Positions 4,569 through 63,827 of a stretch of 64,000 bases of DNA are shown in pieces. The stretch spans positions 3,716 to 67,715 of the forward strand of contig JANMCN010000036.1 of NCBI GenBank assembly GCA_031361295.1. Reading direction: 5' to 3'. The notes beneath the pieces were generated by a model. That model ran no database searches and had not been told where the DNA came from. It was given only the letters and a program-made list of their open reading frames with translations. Source of the DNA: Acidobacteriota bacterium. Lineage in GTDB: Bacteria; Acidobacteriota; Vicinamibacteria; Vicinamibacterales; 2-12-FULL-66-21. Made by a program: the position numbers and the translations under genes. Position 1 is the stretch's first letter; the number at the start of each line of letters is the position of its first letter.

Positions 4569-4852
4569 GCATCGCCCGAGCGGTTAGACAGGGAAACCTC
4601 GCAATCGCCGTATTGTGTCATTGAACCGTGGTGAACGGCACAGAACTCGGCGACATGGGGGATCGTCCCGTGAGGACCGTGGATATGTGCGAGACGTGAG
4701 GCTTGGAGAGGCGGGAGATGGTCGAGAGGCGCACGATCGACCGGAAGCGGAACGCGAAGCACCCTGCGAAAGTGCTGACGTTAGCCGCGGATGTCGTCGC
4801 CGGACCATTCCGGCGTGACCTCCTGCGCTCCGCTCCCGGTCCACCGTGCCGG

Positions 4853-12219: not shown

Positions 12220-14853
12220 ATGCCTGGACCCCGTCGTTCCGCCGCGCGCTGGCTCCTGCTGCTCCTCGTCGGCTTCTGTCGGGCGGACATCGCGGCCCGG
12301 CAGCCGGCGACGCGGGACGGGATTGCCCCGCTCGTTCGGCAGCTCGAGCACGCGGCCGCAGCCGCCGATGCCCCGGGCATCCTGGCGCTGGGGGCCGCGT
12401 CAATCAGCCGTCCGAGCTTCGAGGAATTCGCACGGTCGATCACCACGCCGGCCCCGACCCGGCTCCTCCTGACCGAGCGCGATCGTGCACCTCTCGAAGG
12501 CGGCGGACAGCGCCTGATTGTCGAAGTGTTCAGCGAGCACGGCATCGAAGCGCGCCTGGGCACCTGGCGCGTCGACGTCCGGCCCGGCGCCGCGGCAGCG
12601 GACGCGTGGCACATCGCCGCCGTCAGCCGGCTGTCCATCGTCACCGGGCTGTACCGCCTGTCGCTCAACCCCGCCAAACAGTACGAGATTCACAACCTCA
12701 CGGTGCACGCGCCCGACCTCGTCGTCGAAATGACGTCCGGACGCGCATTCGTCGCAGAAACCAGTGAAGGGCCGACCGCGCTCGTGCTGCTCGGGCGTGG
12801 ACGCATGCAGTTCACCCCGCCGGATCCCGCCGAGCGCACGCAGATCAAGATTTTCGGAGGAGCCGAATCGCTCGCGGTCGATATCGACACCGCGTTCATC
12901 CGGCTCTATCCCGGTGAGTTCGCTTCACGCGTGGATGGAGGGGCGCTCCGTCCCTGCGCGGTGGACCCGGCCAACCTCCGCGCCGCGACGGCGATCTTCA
13001 ACGCGCACGTCGGCCAGTCGCTGCAGGTGGACCTGAGCGATCTGAGCCACGATCGCTGGTCGCTTCTGCCTTCCCCGGGCGATTTCATCGGAGAACTGCA
13101 TTCCAGGAAGTACGGCACCCTCACGTATACGCGGTCGGGCAGCGAAGCGGAAGACATCACGTTGTTCGATCGCAAGCAGCGCCGCAACATTTCCGTCTAC
13201 GCGTCGCCGGAAAAACTCGCACGCCGGGGCCGCTCGTTCAGTGAAGACAGCACCCTCGACTACGACGTCCTCGCGTATGACATCGACGCGGAGTTCATTC
13301 CCGAGCGCGGCACGGTGGAGGGGCGCGCGACAATCACGCTCCGGATGCTGGCGGAGAGCGCCTCCCTGACCTTCCGCCTGGCCGACACGTTGTCGGTTCG
13401 AGGCATCTATTCCCCCGCGTACGGCCGTCTCCTGCATCTGCGGGTGGTCGGGCAGAACAGCGTGATCGTGAACCTGCCGGCGGTGCTGAAGCCGGGGACC
13501 GAGCTCTCGTTGAGCGTCGTGTACGGCGGACGAATCGCTCCGCAGGTGTTCGATCGGGAAGCCATCCAGGCCGGCGCGGACACGCACGAACCCGTCGTCG
13601 TGCCGATCGAGCAGCGGTGGCTCTTCAGCAACCGGAGCTACTGGTATCCGCAATCGACGGTCACCGACTATGCCAGCGCACGGCTGAGGATCACCGTTCC
13701 GAGCGACTACGAGGTGGTGGCAACGGGAGATCCCCTGGCCGTGCCGGCGCTGCCGGGAGGCCTCCCCGGCGTGGAGACGTCGAAGCGCCGCAAGTCGTTC
13801 GTGTTCGAGGCCCGTGAGCCGTGCCGGTACCTGGCGCTCGTCATCAGCCGGCTCGACCCGATCACCACGTCACGCATAGTGGCGGGCGGGCGCAGTGTCG
13901 TGCTGTATGTCCGGAGCAGCCCACGGCAGGAGGGGCGCGTCCGCGACCTGGCCCAGAAGGCTGCCGGGGTGTTCACGTTCTACGCGTCTCTCGTCGGCGA
14001 CGCACCCTACCCGAGCTTCACGCTGGCCGCCATCGAAAGCGATCGGCCCGGCGGCCACAGCCCGCCGTATTTTGCGCTGCTCAACCAGGTGGTCGTCGGG
14101 TCCACGTTCGTGTGGCGGAGCGATCCCGTCAGCTTCGACAATTACCCGACCTTCTTCCTTGCTCATGAACTGGCGCACCAGTGGTGGGGCCACGCAGTGG
14201 GCTGGAAGAATTACCACGAGCAGTGGATCAGCGAAGGCTTTGCCCAGTACTTCGCCGCGCTCTATGCCGAGAGGGATCTCGACCCTGGCGTGCTGACCAA
14301 CGTGCTGCGGCAGATGCGACGGACCGCGATCGCCGCCTCGAACCAGGGCCCGGTGTACCTCGGCTACCGCCTGGGACATATCCGTGCCGACGAGCGCGTG
14401 TTCCGTTCGATTATTTACAACAAGGCCGCCATGGTCCTCCACATGCTCCGCCGGTTCGTGGGCGACGAGGCTTTTTTCGCGGGCCTGCGCAGGTTCTACG
14501 AGGACTGGAAGTTCAAGAAGGCGGGCACCGACGACTTCCGGGCCGCGATGGAGAAGGCCAGCGGTCGCGATCTGAACCGTTTCTTCGAGACCTGGATCTA
14601 CGGGACGGCCATCCCGAAAGTGAAATTCAGCGCGCACACGAACGCCGGCTCCGCGCTGATCCGGTTCGAGCAGCACGGAGAGCCGGTCGATGTGCCGATC
14701 ACGGTCACCATCGACTATCAGGCCGGCGCGCCCGACCAGGTCGTCGTCGCGCTGGCCGACAGGATTACCGAACGGACGCTGCCGCTCCGGGGGGCCGTCC
14801 GTTCCATCACGGCGAACGCCGACAACGGCGCGCTGGTCGAGATTCTGAAGTGA
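12220..14853 (+). CDS. secreted M1-family zinc metallopeptidase (aminopeptidase N-like)
   Basis: Signal peptide, then HELAHQWWG...WISEGFAQYF (HExxH-X18-E). Confidence 0.85.
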   Translation: MPGPRRSAARWLLLLLVGFCRADIAARQPATRDGIAPLVRQLEHAAAAADAPGILALGAASISRPSFEEFARSITTPAPTRLLLTERDRAPLEGGGQRLIVEVFSEHGIEARLGTWRVDVRPGAAAADAWHIAAVSRLSIVTGLYRLSLNPAKQYEIHNLTVHAPDLVVEMTSGRAFVAETSEGPTALVLLGRGRMQFTPPDPAERTQIKIFGGAESLAVDIDTAFIRLYPGEFASRVDGGALRPCAVDPANLRAATAIFNAHVGQSLQVDLSDLSHDRWSLLPSPGDFIGELHSRKYGTLTYTRSGSEAEDITLFDRKQRRNISVYASPEKLARRGRSFSEDSTLDYDVLAYDIDAEFIPERGTVEGRATITLRMLAESASLTFRLADTLSVRGIYSPAYGRLLHLRVVGQNSVIVNLPAVLKPGTELSLSVVYGGRIAPQVFDREAIQAGADTHEPVVVPIEQRWLFSNRSYWYPQSTVTDYASARLRITVPSDYEVVATGDPLAVPALPGGLPGVETSKRRKSFVFEAREPCRYLALVISRLDPITTSRIVAGGRSVVLYVRSSPRQEGRVRDLAQKAAGVFTFYASLVGDAPYPSFTLAAIESDRPGGHSPPYFALLNQVVVGSTFVWRSDPVSFDNYPTFFLAHELAHQWWGHAVGWKNYHEQWISEGFAQYFAALYAERDLDPGVLTNVLRQMRRTAIAASNQGPVYLGYRLGHIRADERVFRSIIYNKAAMVLHMLRRFVGDEAFFAGLRRFYEDWKFKKAGTDDFRAAMEKASGRDLNRFFETWIYGTAIPKVKFSAHTNAGSALIRFEQHGEPVDVPITVTIDYQAGAPDQVVVALADRITERTLPLRGAVRSITANADNGALVEILK

Positions 14854-14953
14854 CGGGAATTGCGGATTCCAGAGTCTTCGCGTTTTGACCGAAAACATCG
14901 AACCAGACCGGAAATTCGAACCCCAAATCCTAAAACTTATACAATTGGATCTT

Positions 14954-16750
14954 ATGGACACCGTCAATGTGACGATAGACGGCCGGCAGGTCGCGGTCGA
15001 GAAGGGCAAGACCGTTCTCCAGGCGGCCATCGAGAGCGGCATCAGGATTCCCTATTACTGTTACCACCCCGGCCTCGGCATTGACGGCTCCTGCCGTGTT
15101 TGTATCGTCAAGATCGAGAAGATGCCGAAGCTGCAGACGTCGTGCTCGACGACCGTGGCCGAGGGGATGGTCGTCTCCACCGGGACGCCCGACGTCGTCG
15201 AGGCGCGCGCCAGCGTGTTCGAGTTCCTGCTGATCAATCACCCGCTCGACTGCCCGGTGTGCGACAAGGGCGGCGAGTGTCCGCTGCAGGATTTCTCCTA
15301 CAGCTTCGGACCGAACGAGAGCCGGATGGAGTTTCCGCGGCGGGTATTCGACGGCGAAGGGGTGCGCGCCGACGTGGACTTCGGACCCACGCTGATGCTG
15401 AACCGGAACCGGTGCATCCTCTGCACGCGGTGCGTCCGGTTCATGCGAGAGGTCGACACCGACGCGCAGATCACCATTGCGGACCGCGGGTACGGCAGCG
15501 AAATCGCCACATTCCAGGAGGAGGGCGTCCACTCGCTGCTGTCGGGCAACCTGATGGATGTCTGCCCGGTGGGAGCAATCACGACCCGCGATTATCGCTT
15601 CAAGTCGCGCCCATGGGACAACCCCGAGGCCGTTGACACGATCTGCACGCTCTGTGAGAAGGGCTGCAATACCACCGCGTGGATCAAGGCTAAGCCGGAA
15701 TGGGCCAAGGGCGCGCAGCTCATCCGGACCACGCCGCGTTTCAACCCGGACGTGAACGACTACTGGATGTGCGACATCGGCCGGTTCGATTACCGGTGGA
15801 TCGAAGGAGATGAGCGGCTCCAGCGTCCGTTGCTGCGGACCGACGCGGGCGTGCTCGAACCCTCCGACTGGACCAGCGCGCTCTCGAAAATGGCGGCCCG
15901 GATCACGGCGGCGGGCGGGCCCTCCGCCCTCAGGTTCCTCGTGTCCGCCCACGCGTCGCTCGAGGAGCTGTACCTCATCGGCCGGCTCGGTGGCGCCTTC
16001 GGTCTTCCGGAGAACGGCGTGGCGATCAGCTGGCGGTACCGTGAGAAACCCCAGCCGCCGCGCGCGAAGTTCAAGATTTCCCCCGTCGATGCGCCGAACG
16101 TGAACGGGGCGCGGGACCTCGGATTCCCCGTCAAGGCGTCCGCGAAGGGCGAAGCGGACATCGCCGCGTTCCGCGAGGACGTGGAAGCTGGACGCGTGCA
16201 GGCGCTGCACGTCTTCGATCCCGGCCCGGACGGCTACATGGGCGATGTGTCGTGGGTCATCGAAGCGCGGCGCAGCGGGAAGCTGCCGCTGCTCATCGTC
16301 CAGGGCGTGCTGATGACCGCCCTGGCGCAGGCTGCCGACGTCGTGCTTCCCGGGGCCGCGTGGGTGGAAAAGGACGGCGCCTACGTGAATGAGCAGGGCC
16401 GCCTTCAGGCGGGCGCCCGGGTGATCGGTCCGCCGGCCGATGCACAGGAAGACTGGCAGGTGTTCGTGAACATCGGGCTCGCACTCGGTGCAGGGCTCAC
16501 TTACACGAGCAGCGCGGCCGTCCGCAGCGACCTTGCGACGGCGATGGCCGACAACGAGCGCTATGCGGCGCTGGCCCAGCTCGCGTTCGCCCGGCCGGTC
16601 TCGGCGAAGCACTGGCTGCAGGCCTCGAATCCCTCAGAGCGATGGAAGTGGGACGTCATGTTCCAGGATCTGCCTCCGGTGAAGTTCGCAGCGAAGCCGG
16701 TGCCGACCTCCTGGTTCAACGGCCTGCCGGTCACCACGAAAACCGAGTAA
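14954..16750 (+). CDS. NuoG-like NADH dehydrogenase 75-kDa subunit homolog (2Fe-2S + 4Fe-4S + molybdopterin-oxidoreductase-like domain), orphan
   Basis: Start set to MDTVNVTIDGRQV. Cys clusters present: CYHPGLGIDGSCRVC; HPLDCPVCDKGGEC; CILCTRCVRF. No other nuo genes are nearby. Confidence 0.8.
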   Translation: MDTVNVTIDGRQVAVEKGKTVLQAAIESGIRIPYYCYHPGLGIDGSCRVCIVKIEKMPKLQTSCSTTVAEGMVVSTGTPDVVEARASVFEFLLINHPLDCPVCDKGGECPLQDFSYSFGPNESRMEFPRRVFDGEGVRADVDFGPTLMLNRNRCILCTRCVRFMREVDTDAQITIADRGYGSEIATFQEEGVHSLLSGNLMDVCPVGAITTRDYRFKSRPWDNPEAVDTICTLCEKGCNTTAWIKAKPEWAKGAQLIRTTPRFNPDVNDYWMCDIGRFDYRWIEGDERLQRPLLRTDAGVLEPSDWTSALSKMAARITAAGGPSALRFLVSAHASLEELYLIGRLGGAFGLPENGVAISWRYREKPQPPRAKFKISPVDAPNVNGARDLGFPVKASAKGEADIAAFREDVEAGRVQALHVFDPGPDGYMGDVSWVIEARRSGKLPLLIVQGVLMTALAQAADVVLPGAAWVEKDGAYVNEQGRLQAGARVIGPPADAQEDWQVFVNIGLALGAGLTYTSSAAVRSDLATAMADNERYAALAQLAFARPVSAKHWLQASNPSERWKWDVMFQDLPPVKFAAKPVPTSWFNGLPVTTKTE

Positions 16751-16801: not shown

Positions 16802-17458
16802 CTATTCGACCACGTTGATCAAGTCGACTATGGCGGTATGCCCTTTCGCGGCGGCTCGTGACAGGGGTGTCCGGTCCTCGGCATCGACCACGTGCGCGTC
16901 GGCGCCCCGTGCGAACAGCGCCCGTGCGACGGGTACATACCCCGCTTCGGCCGCGATATGGAAGGGTGTGTGGCCTCCCGCGTCGGCGACGTTCACCTCG
17001 GCGGCAGCCTCGATGAGCCGCAGCGACACGTCGACGTGCCCTCCGGCGACGGCGGCGTGGAGCGGGGTGTTGCGAAGCGCGTTGCGGGAGACGACGTTCA
17101 GGTCGGCTCCGGCGGCCATCAACCGTTCCACAGCCGCCTTCCGGCCGAAGAAGGCGGCGAGGTGCAGCGGCGTCCACCCGTCGTAGGAATAGGTATTGAT
17201 CCCTGCGGCGGGCGGCGCCAGGAACGGCTCGAGGGTGTCCATCTGTCCGAGCGCGGCGGCCGCGAAGATGTCGAGCGGCGCCCCCGCCGCGACGAGCCAG
17301 TCGGCCGCCGCCGCCTGCTTGTGGTACAGCGCGGCCATCAGCGGCGTTTCACCTGAGGCGGCCCGAACGGCGATCAGGCCCGGGTCCGCGGCCAGGAGAC
17401 GTTGCAGTGCCGCGACGTCGCCGCTCCTGGCGGCGTTGAGAAACTCGTCTGTCTTCAT
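16802..17458 (-). CDS. ankyrin-repeat protein
   Basis: Repeated G.TPLH.AA..G motifs. Its ATG overlaps the stop of the upstream kinase gene (ATGA). Confidence 0.85.
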   Translation of the reverse strand: MKTDEFLNAARSGDVAALQRLLAADPGLIAVRAASGETPLMAALYHKQAAAADWLVAAGAPLDIFAAAALGQMDTLEPFLAPPAAGINTYSYDGWTPLHLAAFFGRKAAVERLMAAGADLNVVSRNALRNTPLHAAVAGGHVDVSLRLIEAAAEVNVADAGGHTPFHIAAEAGYVPVARALFARGADAHVVDAEDRTPLSRAAAKGHTAIVDLINVVE

Positions 17459-18366
17459 TTCGAGAGTCTTTCTGCGGCCTGCGCGGTCCGCACTTTCAGC
17501 GCGCCAGGAAGAATCCGCACGTCGACGCGTCCTTCCGCGACACCCGGTTCACCGTCCACGTGGAACTCGATCGGTCCCTCTGCGTCGATCGACGCGCACG
17601 TCACGCGGACCGTGCGCACTCTCGGCGCACGGTGCGCGGTGCCGGTCACGAGGTGCCGGGCGTGCCAGAAGCGGGCCATGACCGAACGTTCCTCGACGAT
17701 CGTGGCGTCCAGCAGGCCGTCGTCCAGCTCGGCGCCAGGCGCGATGCGGGCACCCAGCCCGTACTCGCGGCCGTTCGCGAACGCAATGAGCAGGGCACGA
17801 ACCGCGCACGGATCACCGTCGAGGTGCAGGCGATAGTCGACCGCACCGTAGCGCCACCCTTCGCGGACGCCCAGAAGGAGGTACGGCCACGCGCCGCGCT
17901 TCCCGGCGGGGCGGAGATTGAAGTGGCGGGCCACGCGCGCGTCGAATCCCACGCCGGCGATGTTGAAGAAGGGGCGCCCTGCCATGGTGCCGGCGTCGAT
18001 GGTGCGCGTTCGCCCATCCAGGGCCTCAGCGAGGGCGGCACGCGGATCATGCGGTACACCAAGCGCGCCGGCGAGCCCGTTCCCTGAACCGGCGCGAACG
18101 AGCCCGATCGCGGTATCCGAGTGCAGCACTCCACTGCCCGCTTCGTTCATGGTGCCGTCACCTCCCCAGACGATGACGAGCGGCGCTCCGGCGGCGGCGC
18201 TCGCCGCGGCGAGATCGCGCGCGTGACCGACGCGCTCGGTCACGTGAATCGCCGCGCGCAGACCCCGACGCTCCAGCTCGCTCCTCACGAGCGCGATGCG
18301 ACGCGCACCGGCGGCAGCATCCGCGCCGGCGCCCGAAATCGGATTGATGATCGCGACGATCGACAT
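17455..18366 (-). CDS. diacylglycerol/lipid kinase family protein (YegS/BmrU-like)
   Basis: Start set to MSIVAIINPISGAG. Contains the GGDGT motif (VIVWGGDGTMNE) and GSGNGLA. Confidence 0.85.
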   Translation of the reverse strand: MSIVAIINPISGAGADAAAGARRIALVRSELERRGLRAAIHVTERVGHARDLAAASAAAGAPLVIVWGGDGTMNEAGSGVLHSDTAIGLVRAGSGNGLAGALGVPHDPRAALAEALDGRTRTIDAGTMAGRPFFNIAGVGFDARVARHFNLRPAGKRGAWPYLLLGVREGWRYGAVDYRLHLDGDPCAVRALLIAFANGREYGLGARIAPGAELDDGLLDATIVEERSVMARFWHARHLVTGTAHRAPRVRTVRVTCASIDAEGPIEFHVDGEPGVAEGRVDVRILPGALKVRTAQAAERLSK

Positions 18367-46085: not shown

Positions 46086-47672
<1,587 letters not shown>

Positions 47673-48557: not shown

Positions 48558-48588
48558 GATTCTTCAACTATCGGCTGTCCGCCCCCGC

Positions 48589-50118
<1,530 letters not shown>

Positions 50119-51934: not shown

Positions 51935-52045
51935 GATACCTCCGAAGTGCGATTCAAGGCCGCTCAGCCGCGCATTTGCGCGGCAACCCAAACATTGATT
52001 TATACCACTCGGGCTGAACCCCGCGCAACGAAGGAAAGACCCGCG

Positions 52046-53077
52046 TCAGACAACCACGATGGCGGCGCCCGCCGCCGCGGTGGCCCGGCCAATCCGGGCT
52101 GACGCGACGCCGGCGGCCGCGAGCGAAGCCACGACGGCATCCGCGTGCACGGGATCGACCGCCAGCAGCAGCCCGCCGGACGTCTGTGGGTCGTAAAGAA
52201 GGTCGATCAGCTCTGGCGCGATCCCCGCCGCGACCGTGACGCGCGTACCGAAATGCTCACGATTCGTCCGCCCGCCGCCGGGGATGTTTCCGTGCACGAG
52301 CGCACGCGCGCCGTCGAGGAGCGGGACCCGGTCGGCCTGCACCTCCAGGGAACAGCGGCTCGACGCCGCCATTTCGGCCGCATGTCCGATGAGCCCGAAG
52401 CCGGTGATGTCGGTGCAGGCATGCACGGCCCCGCCGTGCGCGAGGACCACCTCCGCCGCCGTACGGTTCAGCGTGGTCATCGAACGAACGGCGGCCGCGA
52501 TCGCGTCCTGCGGCGCGCGTGCGAACTTCAGCGCGGTCGCGATGATCCCGGTGCCTATGGGTTTGGTCAGGAGCAGAACGTCCCCCGGCAGGGCGCCCCC
52601 GTTGGCGAGGACGCGGTCCGGGTGCACTTCTCCCGTGACCGCATATCCGAATTTGACTTCCGTGTCCTGCACGGTATGTCCGCCGAGCAGCACGACGCCG
52701 GCTTCGCGGAGCTTTTCGAGGCCCCCCGCAAAAATCTGCTTCAGCACGGCCCGGTCGAGATCGACGGGAAACGCCGCAATCGCCAGCGCGGTCAGCGGCC
52801 GGCCGCCCATCGCGTACACGTCACTCAGCGCGTTCGCCGCCGCGATCTGGCCGTACACGAACGGGTCGTCGACAATCGGCGTGAAAAAGTCGACCGTCTG
52901 CACGAGCGCGCGATGCGCGTCGAGCCGGTACACACCGGCATCGTCCGAGGTCCGATAATCGATGAGGACCCGGTCGTCGTCATTGACGGGCAAATCACCC
53001 AGCACCTGGGCGAGCTCGCCGGCGGCGAGCTTGCTCGCTCAACCGGCGCAGGCGGCGTAGTCGGTCAGACGGCGCAT
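52046..53077 (-). CDS. selD: selenide, water dikinase (selenophosphate synthetase) containing in-frame UGA = selenocysteine
   Basis: Joining track ORFs 52046..53005 and the last 12 codons of 53039..53746 across the TGA at 53041..53039 gives MRRLTDYAACAG-U-ASKLAAGELAQVLGDLP. This aligns with E. coli RLTQYSHGAGC17GCK20ISPKVLETIL, placing Sec at the Cys17 position with Lys20 conserved. Confidence 0.85.
53013..53031 (-). other. candidate SECIS-like hairpin 3' of the selD UGA
   Basis: AGCUCGCC-GCC-GGCGAGCU, an 8-bp perfect stem beginning 7 nt after the UGA. An alternative fold is GCGAG-CAAG-CUCGC immediately after the UGA. Confidence 0.4.
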
Positions 53078-53148
53078 TCTCTCCTCGGGTCTCCTGGTTT
53101 CAGCTCTCGGGTTCTCGGCCTGCGTGGGTCGGTTCCGGTCGCGCCGCG

Positions 53149-54006
53149 TCACGGCTCCGTCAGGGCTTCGTAGAGGCGGTTCAGTTCCTCTTCCGATGCG
53201 AAATCGATCTCGATGGTTCCCCCTTTCCGTTTGCGCGCGATTCGCACCCGCGTGCCGAGCGTGAAGCGCAGGCGTTCTTCGGCGGCGCGTGTGTGAACGT
53301 CCTTTTCCACAGCCGCCGGCGTTTCGGCCGCCGGCTGCGACTGCTTCTTGACGAGCGCTTCCGTCTCTCGCACCGACAGGCCCCGGGCGATCACGTCCCG
53401 CGCGAGACGCAGCTGGGCGGGCTCGTCGGCGAGAGCGAGCAGCGTGCGGGCATGCCCCATCGACAGGGCGCCCGAGCCGAGGTGCGCGCGGATTTCCTGG
53501 GGCAGCTTCAGCAGGCGCAGAACATTCGCCACCGACGATCGCTCCTTGCCGACCGCGTCCGCGATCTGTTCCTGCGTCAGCTGGTACTCGTCGGCCAGAC
53601 GCCGGTACGCCGTGGCCTCTTCGATCGGGTTCAGGTCCTCGCGCTGGATGTTCTCGATGAGCGCCACGGCGAGCAGGCGCTCGTCCGGGACGTCCCGCAC
53701 CACCACGGGCACTTTGAGCAGGCCGGCGCGCTGCGACGCGCGCCACCGCCGCTCGCCGGCCACGATCTCGTAGCCTCCGTCGGCCTTGCGCACGACGATC
53801 GGCTGGATGATGCCGTTGGCGCGGATGGACCGGGCGAGCTCCTCGATCTTCTCCTCGTCCATCGTCGTGCGCGGCTGAAACCTGTTCGGGCGGAGCAGGT
53901 CGCTGTCGACGTCGAGGCTGCGGTCGGCGGCGGCCGGGGCCGGCGGAAGCGTGTCGGGAATGAGGGCGGACAAGCCGCGCCCAAGTGCGGGTCGCTTTTC
54001 AGCCAT
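53149..54006 (-). CDS. parB: chromosome partitioning protein ParB (Spo0J)
   Basis: Start MAEKRPALGRGLSALIP. GERRWRA box and HTH QEQIADAVGKERSSVANVLRLL. Confidence 0.92.
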   Translation of the reverse strand: MAEKRPALGRGLSALIPDTLPPAPAAADRSLDVDSDLLRPNRFQPRTTMDEEKIEELARSIRANGIIQPIVVRKADGGYEIVAGERRWRASQRAGLLKVPVVVRDVPDERLLAVALIENIQREDLNPIEEATAYRRLADEYQLTQEQIADAVGKERSSVANVLRLLKLPQEIRAHLGSGALSMGHARTLLALADEPAQLRLARDVIARGLSVRETEALVKKQSQPAAETPAAVEKDVHTRAAEERLRFTLGTRVRIARKRKGGTIEIDFASEEELNRLYEALTEP

Positions 54007-54808
54007 GGGATTGCTCCGTGCCGGCGGTGATGGGGGCGCCGTCGCGCGCGAGCACCTCGCGCGCCAAGGCGAGATAGGCCTCCGCGCCGCGTGATTTGAC
54101 GTCGTAGACAATCGCGGGGAGCCCGTGGCTGGGCGCCTCGCCGAGCCGGATGTTCCGCGGGATGACGACATCGAAAACGCGTGCCTCGAAAAACGCGCGA
54201 ATGTCGCGGGCGACCTGCTGCCCCAGGTTCGTCCGCTCGTCATACATCGTCATCAGCACGCCCGCGATGTCGAGCGACGGGTTGAAGGCTGCCCGCACGC
54301 GGCGCAGCGTGGCGACGAGATCGGCGAGCCCTTCGAGCGCGAAGTACTCGCAGTTGAGGGGAATCAGCACCGCATCGGCGGCGACGAGCGCGTTGAGCGT
54401 GAGGAGCCCGAGCGACGGCGGCGTGTCGATGAACACGTAGTCGAACTCCGGCCGCAGCCGATCGAGGACCCGGCGCAGCCGCAGTTCGCGATGCGGAAGC
54501 GACACGAGATCGATCTCGGCCCCGGTGAGATCGCGGTCGGCCGGGATGAGCGAGAGCCCGGCCACACTGGTCGACAGCAGGAAGGCGGAGGGGTCGTCTA
54601 CGTCCGCGGTGAGCGCCTGATACACCGTGCCCGCGGCGGCGGTCTGCCCCTTGAGCCCTACACCGCTCGTGAGATTGGCCTGTGGATCCATATCGACGAG
54701 CAACACCCGCTGGTCCGCCAGGGCCAGGGAGGCTGCCAGATTGATGGCCGTCGTGGTTTTGCCGACGCCGCCTTTCTGATTGGCAACTGCGCGAATGCGG
54801 GCATTCAT
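53999..54808 (-). CDS. parA: chromosome partitioning ATPase ParA (Soj)
   Basis: Start MNARIRAVANQKGGVGKTT (deviant Walker A). 8-nt overlap with parB. Confidence 0.92.
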   Translation of the reverse strand: MNARIRAVANQKGGVGKTTTAINLAASLALADQRVLLVDMDPQANLTSGVGLKGQTAAAGTVYQALTADVDDPSAFLLSTSVAGLSLIPADRDLTGAEIDLVSLPHRELRLRRVLDRLRPEFDYVFIDTPPSLGLLTLNALVAADAVLIPLNCEYFALEGLADLVATLRRVRAAFNPSLDIAGVLMTMYDERTNLGQQVARDIRAFFEARVFDVVIPRNIRLGEAPSHGLPAIVYDVKSRGAEAYLALAREVLARDGAPITAGTEQSHG

Positions 54809-55118
54809 TAGGTCGAATAACCTACAATGTCGAGTGACGACGAGGTGGTGGAAGAAGCATAGCGCTCGCTCGGTCAGCCGCGCAACGAAAACCAAAGGGA
54901 GGCACCTGACCTCAGCTGGGCCCTCCAGTTGCGACCTCAGCACTAGCAGGCGAGGATCCGTGGACTCGCACCCCTGTTAGAAAGTCGGTAACCCTCAGAT
55001 TCAGACATCAGTCGTCTTCGGCATGTGCATGTTCGTACCTTGAGGTCGTAGTCGCCTGGCGCGTGCGGAACTCAAGTAGAGCTTGCCTGGCGCTGCCGAC
55101 ATACCGAGAACTTCGCGA

Positions 55119-55134
55119 TGTTCCACGTGGAACA
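55119..55134. promoter_or_regulatory. parS centromere site
   Basis: TGTTCCACGTGGAACA is a perfect 16-bp palindrome matching consensus TGTTNCACGTGNAACA. It lies 10 nt downstream of the rsmG stop and upstream of parAB. Confidence 0.85.
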
Positions 55135-55143
55135 CTCTAGAAG

Positions 55144-55788
55144 CTAGAAAGCGGTCTTTTGAAGAATGGTGAGCCGGCTCTGCAGGGAATCGACGAGCGG
55201 ATACGTGTTCACCCAACGCAACATCGGCACGGACTGCGGTTCTTTCGGACCGCCCGGCCCCCGAAACATGAACATCGAACCGCCAGGCCGAAGGAACGCC
55301 TGCAGCGTCATCAAACTTCGCGGCTCGACCCGAACCGCCCGCAAGGACAGCACGGTTACCGACTCGTGCAGCTCGGGACGAGCGAGGAGCTCCTCAAAAC
55401 GGCTAGTCTCCACCACGGTGTCGCTCAATTCCAAGGTGCGGATCGCCTCGCGCAGGAACGCGGACTTTCGAGCTTTGACTTCCACCATCGTCAGGACGGA
55501 CAGGGGAGACGCCAGCTTCAGCGGGATGGCTGGGGAGCCACCTCCCGAGCCGACATCCATGAGACGCAGGTCGGCTGTGGGGAGATGGCGGGCGGCCAGA
55601 ATGGGCTCCAACAGGAGGCGGTCGATGGCCTCGTCCGGATCGTCCAGTGCAGTGAGATTGATCTTGCGATTCCAACGCGCGAGCAGTTCGTAGTACGTGA
55701 GCAGCCGCTCGGAGAGCTCATCTGACAGGAAAATACCCGAGCGGCCCGCACGCCGGCTCAAACGAGTCCTGAGATCGCGCGCTGCCAC
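55144..55788 (-). CDS. rsmG: 16S rRNA (guanine527-N7)-methyltransferase
   Basis: 214 aa. Contains WNRKINLTA and MDVGSGGGSPAIPL. Confidence 0.9.
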   Translation of the reverse strand: MAARDLRTRLSRRAGRSGIFLSDELSERLLTYYELLARWNRKINLTALDDPDEAIDRLLLEPILAARHLPTADLRLMDVGSGGGSPAIPLKLASPLSVLTMVEVKARKSAFLREAIRTLELSDTVVETSRFEELLARPELHESVTVLSLRAVRVEPRSLMTLQAFLRPGGSMFMFRGPGGPKEPQSVPMLRWVNTYPLVDSLQSRLTILQKTAF

Positions 55789-55800
55789 CTCGTCAGATTA

Positions 55801-57642
55801 TCAGACAGCGGTGGAAGTGCGCGCGTGCTGAATGCAGCTGGCGATGAGGGCCACGGCGGCAGGTGTCACGCCGGGGATGCGCGAGGCGTGGCCGAGTGTC
55901 GCTGGCCTGATATGGGAGAGGCGTTCGACCATCTCACGCGAGAGGCCGGGGATACCTGTGAACACAAACCCGGCAGGGATCGCGCGGGTCTCCTGCTTCC
56001 GCTGGCGTTCGACGGCCAGCGTCTGTCGTTTGAGGTAACCCTCGTACTTGAACTCGGTCTCGACGCTGGCGATGTCAATCAGCGCGTCGTGCGAATCCGT
56101 GACCAATGACAGCTGCCCGGACGCCTGCAGCGCCTCCAGACGGACATCCGGATGTTTCAACGCTCTGGCGGCAGGGATCCGCTCGCCCCCCGAAACGGTT
56201 ACGGCCGCGCGATTGACCACGAGGCAGTTGTGCTGGAAACGGTCCAGACGCCTCGCAAATCTCTCCCAGCGCAGGTCGTCCACCAGACCGCACGCCCGGC
56301 CGCGCGTCGTCAATCGAAGATCCGCGTTGTCGACCCGCAGCAGCAGGCGATGTTCGGCCCGCGACGTGAACATACGGTACGGTTCCAGGCATCCCTTGGT
56401 GGTGAGATCGTCGACGAGAATCCCGATGTACGCCTCGCCCCGTCCGAGGACGAACGGCACGTCCGCGTCGAAACGTGCGGCGTTGACTCCGGCGATGAGC
56501 CCCTGGGCGGCCGCCTCCTCGTAGCCGGAGGTGCCGTTGATCTGGCCAGCCAGGAACAGCCCTCGCACCCTGCGGGTTTCGAGCGACGCGCGCAGCTCCG
56601 TCGGCTGGATGAAGTCGTACTCTACGGCATATCCCGGACGCAGCACCTCCGCGGATTCGAGCCCGGGCAGCGCATGAACCAGGTCCGCCTGCACGTCCGC
56701 AGGCAGGCTCATCGAGAATCCGTTCACGTAGACTTCGTCCACGTCCAACCCCTCCGGCTCCAGAAAAATCTGGTGCCTGTCGCGGTGGGGGAAACGCATG
56801 ATCTTGTCTTCGAGCGATGGACAGTACCTGGGTCCAATTCCGCGGATCTGCCCGTTGAAAAGCGGAGACTGGTCGATGTTCCGGCGCACCAGGTCGTGGA
56901 CACGTTCCGTCGTGTGCAGCAGGTGGCAGGCGATCTGAGGCCGGTCGATGGCATCGGTGAGAAACGAGAACGGGGCGGGCGGGTCATCGCCGTGCTGGGG
57001 GACGAACGCCGAAAAATCGATGCTCGCGCGGTGGAGACGAGGCGGCGTGCCGGTTTTGAGTCGGCCCCACTCGAATCCGAACGCCTTGAGCGACTCCGCC
57101 AGGTCGTGTGACGGAGGCTCGCCGATCCGGCCGGCCGGCCGCTGTTCGCGACCCACATGGATCAGACCGTTGAGAAAGGTGCCCGTCGTGACGACCAGGG
57201 CCCGACACCTGAACCGCTGGCCGTCCTCCAGCTCGAGGCCCGTGATTCCGGACGAGTCGGCCAGGATCCGCCCTGCGCGTCCAAAAATCCAGTGGATGCC
57301 AGGCTCCGCCCCCAGCGCCTCTTTGACCCACGCTGAATACCCGCGCTTGTCCGCCTGCGCGCGCGGCGACCAGACGGCAGGCCCCCGGCTCGTGTTGAGC
57401 ATCTTGAACTGGATGCCCGTCGCGTCGATGGCCTTGGCCATCAGCCCGCCCAGCGCGTCGATCTCCCGGACGAGATGCCCCTTGGCGGTTCCGCCCACCG
57501 CCGGGTTGCACGGCATGTGCGCGACCGTCCCGTCCGACAGCGTGCAGATCCCGACGGTCCGGCCGAGCCGCGCCGCGGCCCACGCCGCCTCGACCCCCGC
57601 GTGGCCCGCGCCGATAACGATGACGTCGAAGCCACTTTGCAT
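55801..57642 (-). CDS. mnmG: tRNA uridine-5-carboxymethylaminomethyl modification enzyme
   Basis: 613 aa. Contains [16 protein letters not shown] and [16 protein letters not shown]. Confidence 0.95.
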
Positions 57643-57648
57643 TGCAAA

Positions 57649-59001
57649 CTACTTTCCGATGCAGAACCGATCGAAGATGGCGTGCAGGACGTCGTCCGGC
57701 GTCCTCGCGCCCGTGACCTCCTCGAGACAGGCGCGCGCCTCGCTCACGTCGGCCGCCACGAACTCTTCGGGAGTTCCGCCCGCGGCCGCCGCGGACGCCC
57801 GGCCGAGCGCCGCACGCGCCCGGGTCAACAGTTCGACGTGCCGCATGTTCGTGATCGCCGGTATGTCGCGCAGCCGTTCGCCGCCGGCCAACGCCATGAC
57901 CATCGCGGCGCGCAACGGGTCGAAGCCCGCCCCGGTGCCCGCCGAAACGGACACGACCGGTCCCCCGAGCGCACGAGGATCCCACGCCGCCGGCAGGTCC
58001 GACTTGTTCCGGACTACGACGCGGCGCCCGACCGTCGTGCTCGACAGCAGCGCCTCATCATCGGCCGAGAGCGGGCGGGAGCCATCGAGCGTCACGATGA
58101 CGAGATCCGCGACCTGCCGGGCGGCATGGGCGCGCGCGATGCCCTCCGTCTCGACGGCGTCCACCGGTGCGGCGCGCAGCCCAGCGGTGTCGACGAGTGT
58201 CACCGCGATCCCGTCCAGATCGAGCACCTCGGTCAGGAGATCGCGCGTGGTGCCGGGGATGTCCGTCACGATCGCCCGCCCCGCACCGGCAAGGCGGTTG
58301 AAGATGCTGGACTTGCCCGCGTTCGGTCGGCCGAGGATGACGACCTGCGCGCCGTCGCGCACGAGGCGGCCGCGGGCGGCCTCGGCCAGCAGTGCGTCCA
58401 TTGATCGCCCGATCTCGTCGATCTCGATCGCCGCACGGCCCGGATCGATGAAGTGGTACCCCTCGTCCGCGAAATCGAGGGACGCTTCGAGTCGCGCGCT
58501 CATCTCGAACAGCGCCGTGTCGATCGCCGCGATGCGCGCCGTCAGGGTGCCCTCGAGCTGATCGAACGCCGCGCGGGCCTGCAGCGGCGTCACCGCATCG
58601 ACCAGGTCGTGCACCGCCTCCGCCTGCACCAGGTCGATGCGCCCGCGCAGGTACGCGCGGAAGGTGAACTCGCCCGGCTCGGCCAGCCGCGCGCCGGCCT
58701 GCACCGACGCCTGCACGATCCCATGAAGCAGAACGGGGCTGCCGTGCGCGCTGATTTCGAGCACGTCCTCGCCGGTGTACGAGTGCGGAGCGGGGAAGAA
58801 TGTCAGCACGGCGCGGTCGAACGCCGTCGCGTTGGCGATGATCCTCGACAGCGTCGCGCGCCGCGGCTCGAGCGCGGCCTGGCGGCCGGAAATACTGGCC
58901 GCGATCCCCAGCGCCCCTGGGCCGCTGACGCGGACCACGCCGATCCCGCCTCGACCCGCGGGCGTGGCAATCGCCACGATGGTGTCGTCGGGATTGAACA
59001 T
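57649..59001 (-). CDS. mnmE: tRNA modification GTPase
   Basis: Start MFNPDDTIVAIATPAGRGGIGVVRVSG. G1 motif GRPNAGKSS. C-terminal CIGK. Confidence 0.93.
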   Translation of the reverse strand: MFNPDDTIVAIATPAGRGGIGVVRVSGPGALGIAASISGRQAALEPRRATLSRIIANATAFDRAVLTFFPAPHSYTGEDVLEISAHGSPVLLHGIVQASVQAGARLAEPGEFTFRAYLRGRIDLVQAEAVHDLVDAVTPLQARAAFDQLEGTLTARIAAIDTALFEMSARLEASLDFADEGYHFIDPGRAAIEIDEIGRSMDALLAEAARGRLVRDGAQVVILGRPNAGKSSIFNRLAGAGRAIVTDIPGTTRDLLTEVLDLDGIAVTLVDTAGLRAAPVDAVETEGIARAHAARQVADLVIVTLDGSRPLSADDEALLSSTTVGRRVVVRNKSDLPAAWDPRALGGPVVSVSAGTGAGFDPLRAAMVMALAGGERLRDIPAITNMRHVELLTRARAALGRASAAAAGGTPEEFVAADVSEARACLEEVTGARTPDDVLHAIFDRFCIGK

Positions 59002-59086
59002 TTTCGGCGGACTTGCTTCGCGGTGGTCGACTCCAGCTGTGACGCCCATGCGTCCCGGAGTTACAGGGGCCGTGCCCAGGCTGGCT

Positions 59087-59542
59087 TCAGAGCCGCGGCC
59101 TCACCGAAATAATGACGGTCTTCATCACCGCATCGCCGATGCTCTCCGACGACATCTGCGGATCCTCTGCGACGGTCAGGTGCACGAGCCGCCGCGAGTA
59201 CGGGTTGAGCGGGCCCATCTCCTGGGACGCCCCCGACGTCTTCGCCTTTTCCATCATGAAGCGGGCCATCTGCCGCAGTTCCGCGTCCTTCGCCTTGCGG
59301 TAGTCCATGCAGTCGACGACGAACGAGCGGTCGTCCTGCAGCTCGCGTCGGAAGGCGGTGTTCACGATCTGCTGCAGCGCGTCGAGCGCCTCGGCCCGTT
59401 TGCGCAGCAGCGCCTCGCTGCCTTCGCCCGAGATCTCGACGCGAACGCTGTCGGGCGTGTCCACGATCGCGACGTCCGCGGCGATTCCCATGGCGGCCAC
59501 GGTCTGGCGCGTGAACTCGAGGACGCGATCCTGCAGCTCCAT
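59087..59542 (-). CDS. jag: Jag/KhpB-like KH + R3H RNA-binding protein
   Basis: In-frame C-terminal 151 aa of track ORF 59087..60256, starting MELQDRVLEF. R3H region GPLNPYSRRLVHLTV. Its ATG overlaps the yidC stop (TGATG). Confidence 0.85.
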   Translation of the reverse strand: MELQDRVLEFTRQTVAAMGIAADVAIVDTPDSVRVEISGEGSEALLRKRAEALDALQQIVNTAFRRELQDDRSFVVDCMDYRKAKDAELRQMARFMMEKAKTSGASQEMGPLNPYSRRLVHLTVAEDPQMSSESIGDAVMKTVIISVRPRL

Positions 59543-61269
59543 CACTTCTGCTCCTTCGCCTGATCCGTCTTGCCGCCGCCGGCGTTCTTGACCCGGCGCT
59601 CCGCCGGTGGCCGTACGGTGCGCTGCGCGGCCGGCCCGATCAGCCGGTTGGTGAACGCCTGCTGCCCGATCGCCCACAGGTTGCTCGTCGTCCAGTAGAG
59701 CACGAGGCCGCTCGGCGCCCAGATGAACATCGCCATGAAGATGATCGGCATGAACATCATCATCTTCTGCTGCATGGGGTCGGCCGTGGACGGCGTCATG
59801 CGCGTCTGCACGAACTGCGTGAGGCCCATCAGGACGGGCGTGATGAAGAGCGGATCGTGCACCGAGAGGTCGTGAATCCATCCGACGAACGGCGCGCCGC
59901 GGAGCTCGATGGCGACCGAGAGCATGGAATAGAACGCGAAAAGAACCGGCAGCGTGAGCAGCATCGGCACGCAGCCGCTTGCGGGATTGACCCCGCGCTC
60001 GCGGTAGAGACTCATCATCTCCGTGTTCATTTTCTGCCGCGCGGGATCCGTCACCTTCAGCTTGGCGTACCGATCCTGGATGGCCTTCACCTCCGGCTGG
60101 AGCTCCTGCATGCGCCGCATCGACACCACGCTCTTGTGGCGCAGCGGGAACATCGCGAGGTTGATGAGGACCGTCAGGAGGATGATCGACCATCCGTAAT
60201 TGCCGACGAGGCCGTCCACCCATTTGAGGGCGTGCAGGAGCGGGACGACGAGCCACGCGAGGTACCCGAAATGAATCGACCGGACCAGGTCGCGATCGAC
60301 CGCCGCCAGCACGTCGAAGTCCTTGGGGCCGGCGAAGAAGCGCACATTTCTCGGCGAGGACCCCACCCGTACCGACCAGTCGATGAAGTGGGCGACGGTG
60401 TTCTCGGGACCAGGGACCGGCACCGCGAGCTGCCCGTAATCCAGATGGAGCGGCTGGGCGGGTCCGACAATCGCCGTCAGGAAATAATGGTCGTCCACGC
60501 CAGCGAATCCGAAAACGCCGTCCTGCGAGGCGCTTGCAGCCACCTTGGCGGCGGCAATCCGGCTGACGCTGCCGTCCCGGTAGAAAATCGGCTGTGGTGG
60601 AGGGTTATACGTTCGCGAGCTGGCGACCACCCCGCTGCCGAGCGAGGGTCCCCAAAGCACCGTCGGAACGAGCTCACGGTCCCCCTGCGACACGGTCGCG
60701 GAAAAGCTGATGACGTAGGGAGAGCCTGGCGCGAACGAAAACTCTTTGTGGGCGGTCAGACCATTGGCGTCCTGGTAATCGAACGCGAGGCCGGCGGGCG
60801 CGGAGGTCACCCTGACCTCGGTCGTGCTGGGTTTGAAAAGGGCCTCGGCCAGCGTCGCGCTGATCGCGGGATCCTGGACCGACAGCGTGAACGGACGGGC
60901 GGACCCGGCGGGGACGTTGGGTGGAATCAGCTCCAGCGGTTCCCGGGAGGCATTCTGATATTTCTTGAGACGCCAGCTTTTCAGCGCACCGCCCCGCGTC
61001 GTGAACACGGCGGTCACCGACTCGTTGTCGAACGTAATATCGCGCTCGGTCGTGTCAGCGACGAGCGTGGTCACACTGGGAGCGGCGTGTGCGGGGGCTT
61101 TCGCGGCGTCGTCCGAAGAGGGCACCGCCGGCCCCGTCGCGGGAACGGCTGGTGCGGCCCCCGTCGCGGTCCCCGGTTTCAGCTGCGGTTTAGGCGGCGG
61201 GTACAGGGCCTGGTAGCCGTAAAGGACGACGAACGACAGGATGACCGCGAGAAGAACGCGTTTTTCCAT
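59542..61269 (-). CDS. yidC: membrane protein insertase
   Basis: 575 aa. N-terminal TM, periplasmic domain and a conserved 5-TM core (GWSIILLTVLINLAMFPL). Confidence 0.93.
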   Translation of the reverse strand: MEKRVLLAVILSFVVLYGYQALYPPPKPQLKPGTATGAAPAVPATGPAVPSSDDAAKAPAHAAPSVTTLVADTTERDITFDNESVTAVFTTRGGALKSWRLKKYQNASREPLELIPPNVPAGSARPFTLSVQDPAISATLAEALFKPSTTEVRVTSAPAGLAFDYQDANGLTAHKEFSFAPGSPYVISFSATVSQGDRELVPTVLWGPSLGSGVVASSRTYNPPPQPIFYRDGSVSRIAAAKVAASASQDGVFGFAGVDDHYFLTAIVGPAQPLHLDYGQLAVPVPGPENTVAHFIDWSVRVGSSPRNVRFFAGPKDFDVLAAVDRDLVRSIHFGYLAWLVVPLLHALKWVDGLVGNYGWSIILLTVLINLAMFPLRHKSVVSMRRMQELQPEVKAIQDRYAKLKVTDPARQKMNTEMMSLYRERGVNPASGCVPMLLTLPVLFAFYSMLSVAIELRGAPFVGWIHDLSVHDPLFITPVLMGLTQFVQTRMTPSTADPMQQKMMMFMPIIFMAMFIWAPSGLVLYWTTSNLWAIGQQAFTNRLIGPAAQRTVRPPAERRVKNAGGGKTDQAKEQK

Positions 61270-61278
61270 TAAATATTG

Positions 61279-61533
61279 CTATCTGGCGTCAGTCCGCGCA
61301 CCTGGGACCTGATCCACGCCGGAGGCGCCAAAGGGATTGCAGCGCACCAGCCGGCGCACTGCCATGACGGATCCACGGACGACGCCGTGACGAGTGACCG
61401 CTTCCGCCGCGTAGTCGGAACAGGACGGGAAAAACCGACACGCACCGGCAAACATCGGGGAGAACGCGACCTTGTACGATCGCAGGAGTCCGAGCGCGAC
61501 GCGTTGCCCAACGGACAGCTCAGCGGGTGGCAT
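61279..61533 (-). CDS. yidD: membrane protein insertion efficiency factor
   Basis: CRFFPSCSDYAAEAV motif. Confidence 0.9.
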   Translation of the reverse strand: MPPAELSVGQRVALGLLRSYKVAFSPMFAGACRFFPSCSDYAAEAVTRHGVVRGSVMAVRRLVRCNPFGASGVDQVPGARTDAR

Positions 61534-61900
61534 CGGGGAGTGGTGGGAAGCGGGCCGCGCATCGCTTCAGCGCGCCGCGAAGGTCCAGCTCGAGACTTGC
61601 GTAGGCCGCGTCGAACAGTTCCCGGCGGGGAATCACGACGACGTCGAACCCCGCGGCGCCGGGTCCGGGCTCGCTACTGCGCCTGAATATCTCTCGAATC
61701 AGTCGTTTAGCGCGATTTCTGCGAACAGAATCACCCAGTTTGCGCGAGGCCACGATGCCCAGTCGGCGAGTGCCCTGAGCATTGGGCGCCATCAGGACGG
61801 TCAGATAACGCCCCTTCATTCGGAGTGAGAGGTCGAACACCCGCTTGAATTCCCCCCGGCGACGGACCCGGCGGGCCTTCGTGAAGCGCTCGGTCGACAT
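61520..61900 (-). CDS. rnpA: RNase P protein component
   Basis: 126 aa. Contains RLGIVASRKLGDSVRRNRAKRLIRE. Confidence 0.9.
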   Translation of the reverse strand: MSTERFTKARRVRRRGEFKRVFDLSLRMKGRYLTVLMAPNAQGTRRLGIVASRKLGDSVRRNRAKRLIREIFRRSSEPGPGAAGFDVVVIPRRELFDAAYASLELDLRGALKRCAARFPPLPDATR

Positions 61901-61931
61901 GGCGGTTCCTGGCGGAGAAATCCGCGACCGG

Positions 61932-62075
61932 CTACGTGGAGGAGACGGTGAGGCGCTTGCGGCCCTTTGCGCGACGGCGCTTGAGCACCAGTCGGCCGTT
62001 CTTGGTCGCCATGCGCACGAGAAAACCGTGCGTGCGCTTGCGGCGCCTCACGTTGGGCTGGAAAGTCACACTCAT
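61932..62075 (-). CDS. rpmH: 50S ribosomal protein L34
   Basis: Hand-translated, 47 aa and below the track cutoff: [47 protein letters not shown]. Confidence 0.92.
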
Positions 62076-62239
62076 GGTCGGATCCCTTGCAACGAATAGA
62101 TACCCTAGAGAAACTTAGATATTACCGATCGCCGGCGTCTGTTGTCAATCGTCCGGCCCCCTTCTGGGGGTTTGTCGCGGGTCCAATCCGTGTGTTACAG
62201 TCGCCGTCCTTGCGAGTGCCGTAGGGTCTCCCCCCGAAG

Positions 62240-62271
62240 TTTTCCACAACTGTGGAAAAAACTGTGGAAAA
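62240..62271. promoter_or_regulatory. cluster of three identical DnaA boxes (TTTTCCACA) in the rpmH-dnaA spacer
   Basis: TTTTCCACA at 62240..62248 (forward). TGTGGAAAA at 62251..62259 and 62263..62271 (reverse). All fit TTWTNCACA. Confidence 0.7.
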
Positions 62272-62447
62272 GCACAGATTTGCCGTCGTGCCTGGACGAA
62301 CGCTCGGCTGTCCGGACGTGAGTTCCGGTCAGAGACTCAAAATACGGCCTGATTTCGCGTTTCCCTGAGAAAGTGCGGGCCTCAGGGAATGACTCTCCCC
62401 GTGAGGCGAAGGTCCTGGAAAGCTCCACAAACAGACAGCAGGCCACC

Positions 62448-63827
62448 ATGACGGGCAGCAGCATCTGGGACCAGGTCCTCGCTCGCATCGAGACCAAGGT
62501 CAACCGTCACATTTTTTACACCTGGTTCAAGCCGACCGCATTCGTGGCGGACGACGGGCTCCTGCTGCGCATCCGGGTCCCGAACGGGCTGTTCCGCGAC
62601 TGGCTCACGAAACACTACGCGGCCGTGCTGGACGAAGCGCTGGGCGAAATCGATCGCAAGGGCACCACGGTGACCTTCGTCACCGAGGAGTTGCCACGTC
62701 CGCTCGCCTCGCGGAAGCCAGGCTCGGAACCCGTTGCCCTGCCCGCTCTGACGCCCTCAGCCGCCGAAGCCGTGACGGAGACGGCGGAACCCGAAGTCGA
62801 GGAGGCTCCGTCCGGCAGCCTGGCTCCCCGCTACTCGTTCGAAACGTTCATCGTCGGTTCGTCGAACCAGTTTGCCCACGCCGCGTGCCGCGCCGTCGCC
62901 GAGGCGCCGTCCCGCTCGTACAACCCGCTTTTCATCTACGGGGGGGTGGGGCTCGGCAAGACACACCTGATGCATGCCATCGGTCACTACGTGCTCAACC
63001 ACCTAAAAACGCTGAAGCTCACCTACATCTCGTCCGAGCGGTTCATGAACGAGATGATCAACGGCGTCCGCTACGACCGCGTGCTCGACTTCCGCGAGCG
63101 CTACCGCAGCGTCGATGTGCTGCTCGTGGACGACATCCAGTTCCTCGCCGGCAAGGAAGGAACCCAGACCGAATTCTTCCACACGTTCAACGCGCTGTAC
63201 GACTCGCAGAAACAGATCGTCATCAGCAGCGACCGTCCGCCCCATGAAATTCCACAACTCGAAGAGCGTCTGCGCTCCCGGTTCGAATGGGGCTTGATCG
63301 CCGACATCCAGCCTCCCGACCTCGAGACGAAGGTCGCCATCCTCAAGCGGAAGGCCGAGTCGGAGGGCGTGCCGCTGCCGGACGACGTGGCGCTGTACAT
63401 CGCGGGGAAGATCAAGTCGAACATCCGCGAGCTCGAGGGATCCCTCATCCGACTCGTCGCCTATGCGTCGTTGACGGGACGGGAAATTTCGCTCGGACTC
63501 GCGCAGGACGTGCTGCGGAACGTCCTGCAGCACGACGAGCGCGCGGTCACGATCGAAGGCATCCAGAAATACGTCTCGGACTATTACCAGCTGAAGCACG
63601 GAGAACTGAAGTCGCGCAACAACTCGAAATCGATTGCGATGCCGAGACAGATTGCGATGTATCTGTGCAAGAACCTGACGAACGCGTCGCTGCCGGAAAT
63701 AGGGAAGAGCTTCGGCGGCAAGCATCATTCGACGGTGATCCATTCGATCCGGAAGATCGAAGCGCTTCGTCAGAGCGACGGAAATTTCAACACACTTATC
63801 AACACCTTCCTCGAGTCCTTTCGTTAA
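62448..63827 (+). CDS. dnaA: chromosomal replication initiator protein
   Basis: Start set to MTGSSIWDQVLARIE. Walker A GGVGLGKTHL. The C-terminal DNA-binding domain ends SFGGKHHSTVIHSIRKIE. Confidence 0.95.
   Translation: MTGSSIWDQVLARIETKVNRHIFYTWFKPTAFVADDGLLLRIRVPNGLFRDWLTKHYAAVLDEALGEIDRKGTTVTFVTEELPRPLASRKPGSEPVALPALTPSAAEAVTETAEPEVEEAPSGSLAPRYSFETFIVGSSNQFAHAACRAVAEAPSRSYNPLFIYGGVGLGKTHLMHAIGHYVLNHLKTLKLTYISSERFMNEMINGVRYDRVLDFRERYRSVDVLLVDDIQFLAGKEGTQTEFFHTFNALYDSQKQIVISSDRPPHEIPQLEERLRSRFEWGLIADIQPPDLETKVAILKRKAESEGVPLPDDVALYIAGKIKSNIRELEGSLIRLVAYASLTGREISLGLAQDVLRNVLQHDERAVTIEGIQKYVSDYYQLKHGELKSRNNSKSIAMPRQIAMYLCKNLTNASLPEIGKSFGGKHHSTVIHSIRKIEALRQSDGNFNTLINTFLESFR

Follow-up and report, generated by a model that had tools for sequence, protein, structure and literature searches.

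The selD locus and its genomic neighbourhood

The window, i.e. the whole stretch of 64,000 nucleotides that was analysed, has a G+C content of 67% and includes, at 53149..63827, the neighbourhood of the chromosomal origin. The dnaA gene (62322-63827) is found on the plus strand while yidC, mnmE, mnmG, rsmG, parA, parB, selD, atpF', atpF, atpH, atpA, atpD and atpC are encoded on the minus strand. The selD gene has parB on one side and, on the other, the operon for the F-type ATP synthase, atpF'FHA(G)DC (~45630-51991), in which an ORF of 297 codons occupies the atpG position between atpA and atpD. This parB-selD-atp placement is common to Vicinamibacterales relatives whose SelD is of the Sec-type (in-frame UGA) or of the Cys-type (cysteine codon at the same position). 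The features of selD that are relevant to its decoding are listed in Table 1.

Table 1. Features of the selD gene and of its 5' region (positions in the window)
Feature	Coordinates	Strand	Description
Full-length selD CDS	52046..53077	minus	343 codons + stop; one in-frame UGA, predicted to encode Sec at residue 13
Second AGGAG	53096..53092	minus	upstream of the selD ATG
Shine-Dalgarno-like GAGGAG	53086..53081	minus	3 nt 5' of the ATG; read from the sequence, putative function
Start codon ATG	53077..53075	minus	from the sequence; in relatives 2-4 codons ahead of the conserved LT motif
In-frame TGA (probable Sec codon)	53041..53039	minus	same alignment position as E. coli Cys17 and as the Cys in Cys-type orthologues
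Hairpin H1, AGCUCGCC-GCC-GGCGAGCU	53031..53013	minus	8-bp stem, -13.2 kcal/mol, starts 7 nt after the UGA
Hairpin H2, UCGCCCAG-GUG-CUGGGUGA	53013..52995	minus	8-bp stem, -11.2 kcal/mol; GUG loop at 53005..53003
GTG (Val23 codon)	53005..53003	minus	start used by ORF and gene callers, giving a truncated product of 319 aa; coincides with the H2 apical loop
ORF of the program-made list	52046..53005	minus	opens at the GTG
Genuine selD stop, also TGA	52048..52046	minus	from sequence and translation

Three other genes of the window are unrelated to selD: a KaiC-like double-ATPase gene (530..1984, minus strand), a gene coding a stand-alone LigD primase-polymerase domain (3693..4583, minus strand) and a gene for an ankyrin-repeat protein (16802..17548, minus strand). 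In the segment 33479..34850 the G+C content is unusually high at all three codon positions of several frames that overlap on the two strands (GC2 0.72-0.79); its longest minus-strand ORF, of doubtful coding status, has no Pfam match.

The gene product is a full-length selenophosphate synthetase

The gene at 52046..53077 encodes a full-length selenophosphate synthetase (SelD; selenide, water dikinase). The minus-strand translation of 52046..53137 reads ...PEER-MRRLTDYAACAG-*-ASKLAAGELAQVLGDLPVNDDD... and is open to the stop. The peptide MRRLTDYAACAG is followed by the in-frame TGA and by ASKLAAGELAQ, which joins the listed ORF that opens at the GTG. The joined product of 343 residues has a full-length match above the curated cutoff to the SelD equivalog (TIGR00476 / PF00586+PF02769): TIGR00476 scores 363 bits (cutoff 125), residues 3-309 covering profile positions 1-308, and NF002098 scores 313.5 bits (cutoff 299). 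As position 1 of TIGR00476 falls at residue 3, the family model needs the part of the protein encoded 5' of the TGA.

A phmmer comparison with proteins of solved structure, in which the TGA codon was entered as Cys, aligned residues 3-340 with E. coli SelD (3u0o, E = 1.5e-64). The motif RLTDYAACAG-[U]-ASK matches E. coli RLTQYSHGAG-C17-GC-K20, Lys16 corresponding to Lys20, and SelD of Aquifex aeolicus (2yye) aligns in the same amino terminal loop. Without read-through of the UGA, the protein would lack the catalytic Cys/Sec and the Lys found three residues further on, within the Gly-rich loop. The Cys and the Lys of this loop are essential in E. coli SelD. A preliminary description of this DNA, made from the sequence, had proposed that the two frames join into one SelD, that the TGA falls on the catalytic Cys17 with Lys20 conserved, and that alignment of the 343-aa product to SelD families would be a suitable check. 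The profile scores and the alignment to 3u0o bear out both proposals, and the positions that had been assigned to selD are all correct on the minus strand.

The in-frame TGA is conserved among related loci

The comparison set consisted of 80 related species-level genome loci, 79 of which include the selD amino terminus. In every one of these 79, the corresponding codon is TGA. These loci cover Vicinamibacterales, Blastocatellia/Pyrinomonadaceae, other Acidobacteriota, Thermodesulfobacteriota/Syntrophia and Clostridia, the closest ones being metagenome-assembled genomes (MAGs) of Acidobacteriota/Vicinamibacterales with SelD identity up to 83%. The ten codons 5' of the TGA display coding periodicity, with entropies of 0.50, 0.34 and 0.94 at codon positions 1, 2 and 3, respectively (42 Vicinamibacterales-like sequences). 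The constancy of the codon in 79/79 loci and this periodicity show that the TGA placement is not due to chance. The window gene thus has the hallmark of a Sec-type SelD, namely a UGA at the Cys position of homologues (Cys in P0058, P0075, P0079 and P0098) that is kept among its orthologues. UGA is an ordinary stop codon in the window, where it terminates selD itself, parB and yidC, among others. A genome-wide reassignment is therefore excluded and the internal selD UGA requires a local signal.

A lone in-frame stop in one isolated sequence would most simply be read as a sign of a pseudogene or as a sequencing or assembly error for TGC or TGT. The same TGA is, however, found in 79 independently assembled genomes, the remainder of the gene is intact (GC3 0.83, strong family scores) and the RNA structure downstream of the codon is under selection (see next section). 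The comparative data effectively refute this explanation, to which we attach next to no probability.

Two hairpins downstream of the UGA are under selection

Folding of 61 nt beginning 4 nt before the UGA yields two adjacent hairpins, H1 and H2 (Table 1), with a z-score of -3.0 relative to shuffled sequences. They were compared to the bacterial SECIS model of Zhang & Gladyshev, which places the loop 16-37 nt from the UGA (summarised in PMC13188914). The check was strict: the four criteria of the published model were applied and only perfect stems were accepted. H2 (52995..53013) fits this model on all four counts, with a spacing of 33 nt and the loop G-U-G. H1 departs from it in spacing alone: at 15 nt, its loop is too close to the UGA by 1 nt. 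Among Sec-type sequences a hairpin in the H2 zone passes the strict check in 63/80 cases and any qualifying hairpin is found in 67/80. A qualifying hairpin is found in one of four Cys-type lineages and in none of the other three.

Covariation was assessed in a gap-free alignment of 54 columns and 61 distinct sequences. The two-hairpin structure is 81% paired, compared with 23-39% for every control in which the pairing partners were slid. In H2, 86.9% of cells are paired and five of the seven pairs show compensatory changes on both sides, across phyla, as in the replacement of C-G by U-A or A-U at columns 33/43. Vicinamibacterales, Blastocatellia and Clostridia all have the G-U-N loop of H2 in one common register, 33 nt downstream of the UGA. 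H1 is 76% paired in the register of the window because the hairpin of other lineages at this place is found in shifted registers. RNAalifold gave no consensus structure for the full mixed alignment of 61 sequences, since H1 registers differ among lineages and some of these are devoid of H2. Within clades it recovered H1 and H2 in 38 Vicinamibacterales-like sequences and in 9 Clostridia, and solely an H1-type hairpin in one other Acidobacteriota group and in Thermodesulfobacteriota. Once the lineages devoid of H2 had been taken out, H2 was also recovered in a combined set of Vicinamibacterales, Clostridia and Blastocatellia.

Synonymous sites provide a further measure of constraint. Across 42 sequences the third positions of the ten stem codons have a mean entropy of 0.47 bits versus 1.08 bits for 151 conserved codons in the rest of the gene (Mann-Whitney p = 1.2e-4). 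Third positions within the loops vary freely (1.47 bits for Ala17 and 1.72 bits for Val23), the Val23 codon being GTG, GTC, GTT or GTA among relatives. Both hairpins are under selection. A search of the whole window against Rfam at gathering threshold identified no SECIS family, and a permissive search of 52900..53120 gave chance-level matches only (P35, NRF2_IRES, mir-658). A promoter and terminator scan around selD revealed nothing exceeding the expectation from shuffled sequences.

The preliminary description had singled out the 8-bp hairpin that follows the TGA, i.e. H1. This hairpin is real and conserved, with constrained synonymous sites, but it misses the model spacing by 1 nt and the adjacent H2 had been overlooked. 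H2 is the probable SECIS element, either alone or combined with H1, in view of the fit of H2 to the model, its conserved G-U loop and its covariation in a fixed register across phyla.

Cys-type orthologues provide a natural comparison

Four Cys-type orthologues (P0058, P0075, P0079, P0098) are 68-69% identical to the window SelD. They carry TGC in place of TGA and their amino terminus is identical or nearly identical, P0075 reading MKRLTDYAACAG-C-ASKLAAGELAQVLGDLP. Their genes share the (mnmE-mnmG-rsmG-)parA-parB-selD-atp synteny as far as the contigs reach. The Cys-type locus L081 codes for the peptide MKRLTDYAACAG-C-ASKLAAGELAQVLGDLP, the same as that of the window from the Cys onward. Its synonymous changes GGC->GGG, CTC->CTT, GCC->GCG and CTG->CTC break pairs in both hairpins, and they affect stem sites that are invariant or nearly so in Sec-type sequences. 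Overall, three of the four Cys-type lineages have synonymous changes that degrade the hairpins downstream of the codon. This pattern is compatible with conversions of Sec to Cys, which are reported for SelD (PMC1794560).

Note that the Cys-type loci L081-L087, of identical synteny, coexist with a Sec-type majority in the clade. One of them, L083, retains a remnant of the H2 hairpin and looks like a recent Sec-to-Cys conversion. The occurrence of Sec-type and Cys-type orthologues in a common synteny offers a clean natural comparison for the study of SECIS constraints.

Most annotated SelD proteins appear truncated at a false start

Among the best 120 protein matches to the joined product, 115 are 314-320 aa long with a query coverage of at most 93%. 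P0001 (99% identical) and P0119 (345 aa) begin with MLGDLP..., at the false GTG start. About 116 of these 120 proteins appear to lack the amino terminus, like the listed ORF, a truncation that is directly seen for P0001 and P0119 and is deduced from length and coverage for the other short entries. The remaining four are full length and have Cys at the TGA position. The expectation, voiced in the preliminary description, that automated annotation would truncate this gene was thus well founded.

In an alternative reading, translation begins at the GTG at 53005, or at another downstream start, and a SelD of 319 aa without its amino terminus is functional, the upstream frame and its TGA being non-coding. 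This is the start chosen in the ORF list and in public gene calls, and an N-truncated Aquifex SelD was crystallised (2zau, 311 aa). Several observations argue against such a start. The 12 codons 5' of the TGA are conserved as protein, their variation being biased to third positions, and the same amino terminus is found in the Cys-type orthologues, which are full length. The GTG forms the apical loop of H2, a conserved hairpin, and among relatives this Val codon varies freely at the third base. The product would furthermore be devoid of the Gly-rich loop that bears the Sec/Cys and the Lys. We consider initiation downstream of the UGA extremely unlikely. Public entries that start after the UGA would therefore lack the catalytic loop of the full-length enzyme. 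The main value of the result is practical: correcting these selD calls marks the lineage as probably Sec-decoding and gives reason to look again at ORFs split by a UGA in other parts of these genomes.

Selenocysteine machinery

ARAGORN detected no tRNA at all in the 64-kb window and hence no tRNA-Sec. Pfam and NCBIfam searches with ~50 ORFs of the window identified no selA, selB, selU/ybbB, yedE/F or other selenium genes, and selA, selB and tRNA-Sec were likewise not found within ±6 kb of selD in the Acidobacteriota loci. The Sec-type selD of Lachnospiraceae locus L051 is followed by selA and by genes coding a selenium-associated LysR regulator, an SclA-like desulfurase/lyase and YedE, and by tRNA-Sec; selA and tRNA-Sec also adjoin the Sec-type selD of Lachnospiraceae locus L054. 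The order selD(Sec)-selA-LysR(Sec-metabolism)-SclA-like-YedE-tRNA-Sec forms a compact selenium island in these bacteria (L051, 7036..12408, and L054). When the Lachnospiraceae SelA, LysR and YedE were compared by tblastn to all fetched loci, matches were found in Clostridia loci only, while SclA matched Clostridia and, weakly, the Terriglobia locus L069 (27% identity, E = 1.4e-11).

The association of the UGA and hairpins with the Sec machinery is demonstrated in these relatives and, by analogy, would extend to the source genome. The organism is probably Sec-decoding. Acidobacteria are on record as having selenoproteins, with four proteins from three families (PMC1794560).

The window was also scanned for further ORFs that are split by a UGA and have a coding composition on either side of it. 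The scan, whose filter on upstream GC3 was not passed by selD itself, returned only in-frame TGA codons at ordinary gene boundaries and one site in a mirror frame. An ORF on the plus strand (14849..16750) is NuoG/formate-dehydrogenase-like, with 2Fe-2S and 4Fe-4S domains and a partial molybdopterin domain that matches only the end of the Pfam profile. It was considered as a Sec candidate and rejected because it ends in TAA, and nothing in it points to a Sec codon.

The internal UGA might alternatively be read without Sec machinery, either by a near-cognate tRNA (Trp or Cys) or through local reassignment, the hairpins merely stimulating read-through. It speaks for this possibility that Cys is functional at this position in orthologues and that no Sec machinery was found in the window. 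The UGA is nevertheless kept in 79/79 loci with no drift to TGC or TGT, and the G-U signature of the loop together with its spacing is that of a SelB-dependent bacterial SECIS (PMC13188914). Clostridial relatives with the same H2 have selA and tRNA-Sec next to selD, and the selenoproteins known from Acidobacteria (PMC1794560) likewise argue against Sec-independent decoding, which appears very unlikely. Taken together, translation from a downstream start, read-through by another tRNA and a defective or misread gene account for only a small remainder of the probability.

Proposed decoding of the selD UGA

SelB- and SECIS-dependent insertion of Sec at codon 13 of full-length SelD is, judging from sequence comparison, very probable. 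Translation would begin with the ATG at 53077. Once the UGA is in the ribosomal A site, SelB·GTP·Sec-tRNA(Sec) would be recruited by a stem-loop of the coding sequence immediately 3' to it. The recruiting RNA is most likely H2, whose apical loop G-U-N follows the UGA at a distance of 33 nt. In that case H1 would serve as a spacer or lower helix and be unwound by the ribosome; alternatively, H1 itself may be the binding site. After Sec insertion, translation would proceed to the TGA stop.

A more specific version of the H2 assignment is that SelB binds H2 while H1 is a spacer or lower helix selected separately, the pair constituting a tandem-hairpin SECIS architecture specific to SelD. We advance it tentatively and regard it as rather doubtful. 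If true, standard predictors designed for a single hairpin describe the SelD element only in part.

Comparison with known systems

No families of bacterial selenoproteins are more widespread than FdhA and SelD, and in each of them conversions of Sec to Cys are documented (PMC1794560; PMC13188914). SelD ranks second and is frequently misannotated (PMC1794560, PMC13188914, PMC13326102). The presence of Sec at the catalytic site of SelD in this soil acidobacterium is well supported: it is a real but ordinary example of a known, often mis-annotated selenoprotein, and it leaves the understanding of selenium biology unchanged.

Sec-containing SelD proteins from clostridia and deltaproteobacteria are listed in PMC1794560; others are those of Haemophilus influenzae and of Aquifex aeolicus (Sec13; structures PDB 2yye/2zod solved as Cys variant). 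The window SelD has in common with Sec-containing bacterial SelD the assignment to TIGR00476, a probable Sec in an amino terminal G-U-[AG]-x-K loop and a coding-region stem-loop directly after the UGA. They also share a self-referential logic, in which the enzyme that makes the Se donor would itself need Sec. The present case differs in belonging to an uncultured Vicinamibacterales lineage that is not explicitly described in the cited literature, in the origin-proximal parB-selD-atp context of the gene, which is not part of a sel operon, and in having two adjacent constrained hairpins after the UGA instead of one.

The RLTxY...AG-[C/U]-xxK motif and Lys20 of E. coli SelD (Cys17, 3u0o) are kept in the window protein. 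Unlike the window gene, E. coli selD uses a Cys codon (TGC) and needs no recoding. The closest parallel for the RNA is the SECIS of E. coli fdhF, and the consensus bacterial SECIS, in that a stem-loop closely follows the UGA within the coding sequence. H2 agrees with the consensus in every respect: its loop of 3 nt starts with G-U, its stem has 8 bp, the spacing is 33 nt and the folding energy is -11.2 kcal/mol. The H2 apex CAG-GUN-CUG resembles the fdhF apex GCA-GGUC-UGC. In contrast to fdhF, the H2 loop is ~14 nt farther from the UGA and no bulged U is evident. H1 is found at a position like that of the fdhF minihelix, yet it has a GCC loop and a spacing of 15 nt.
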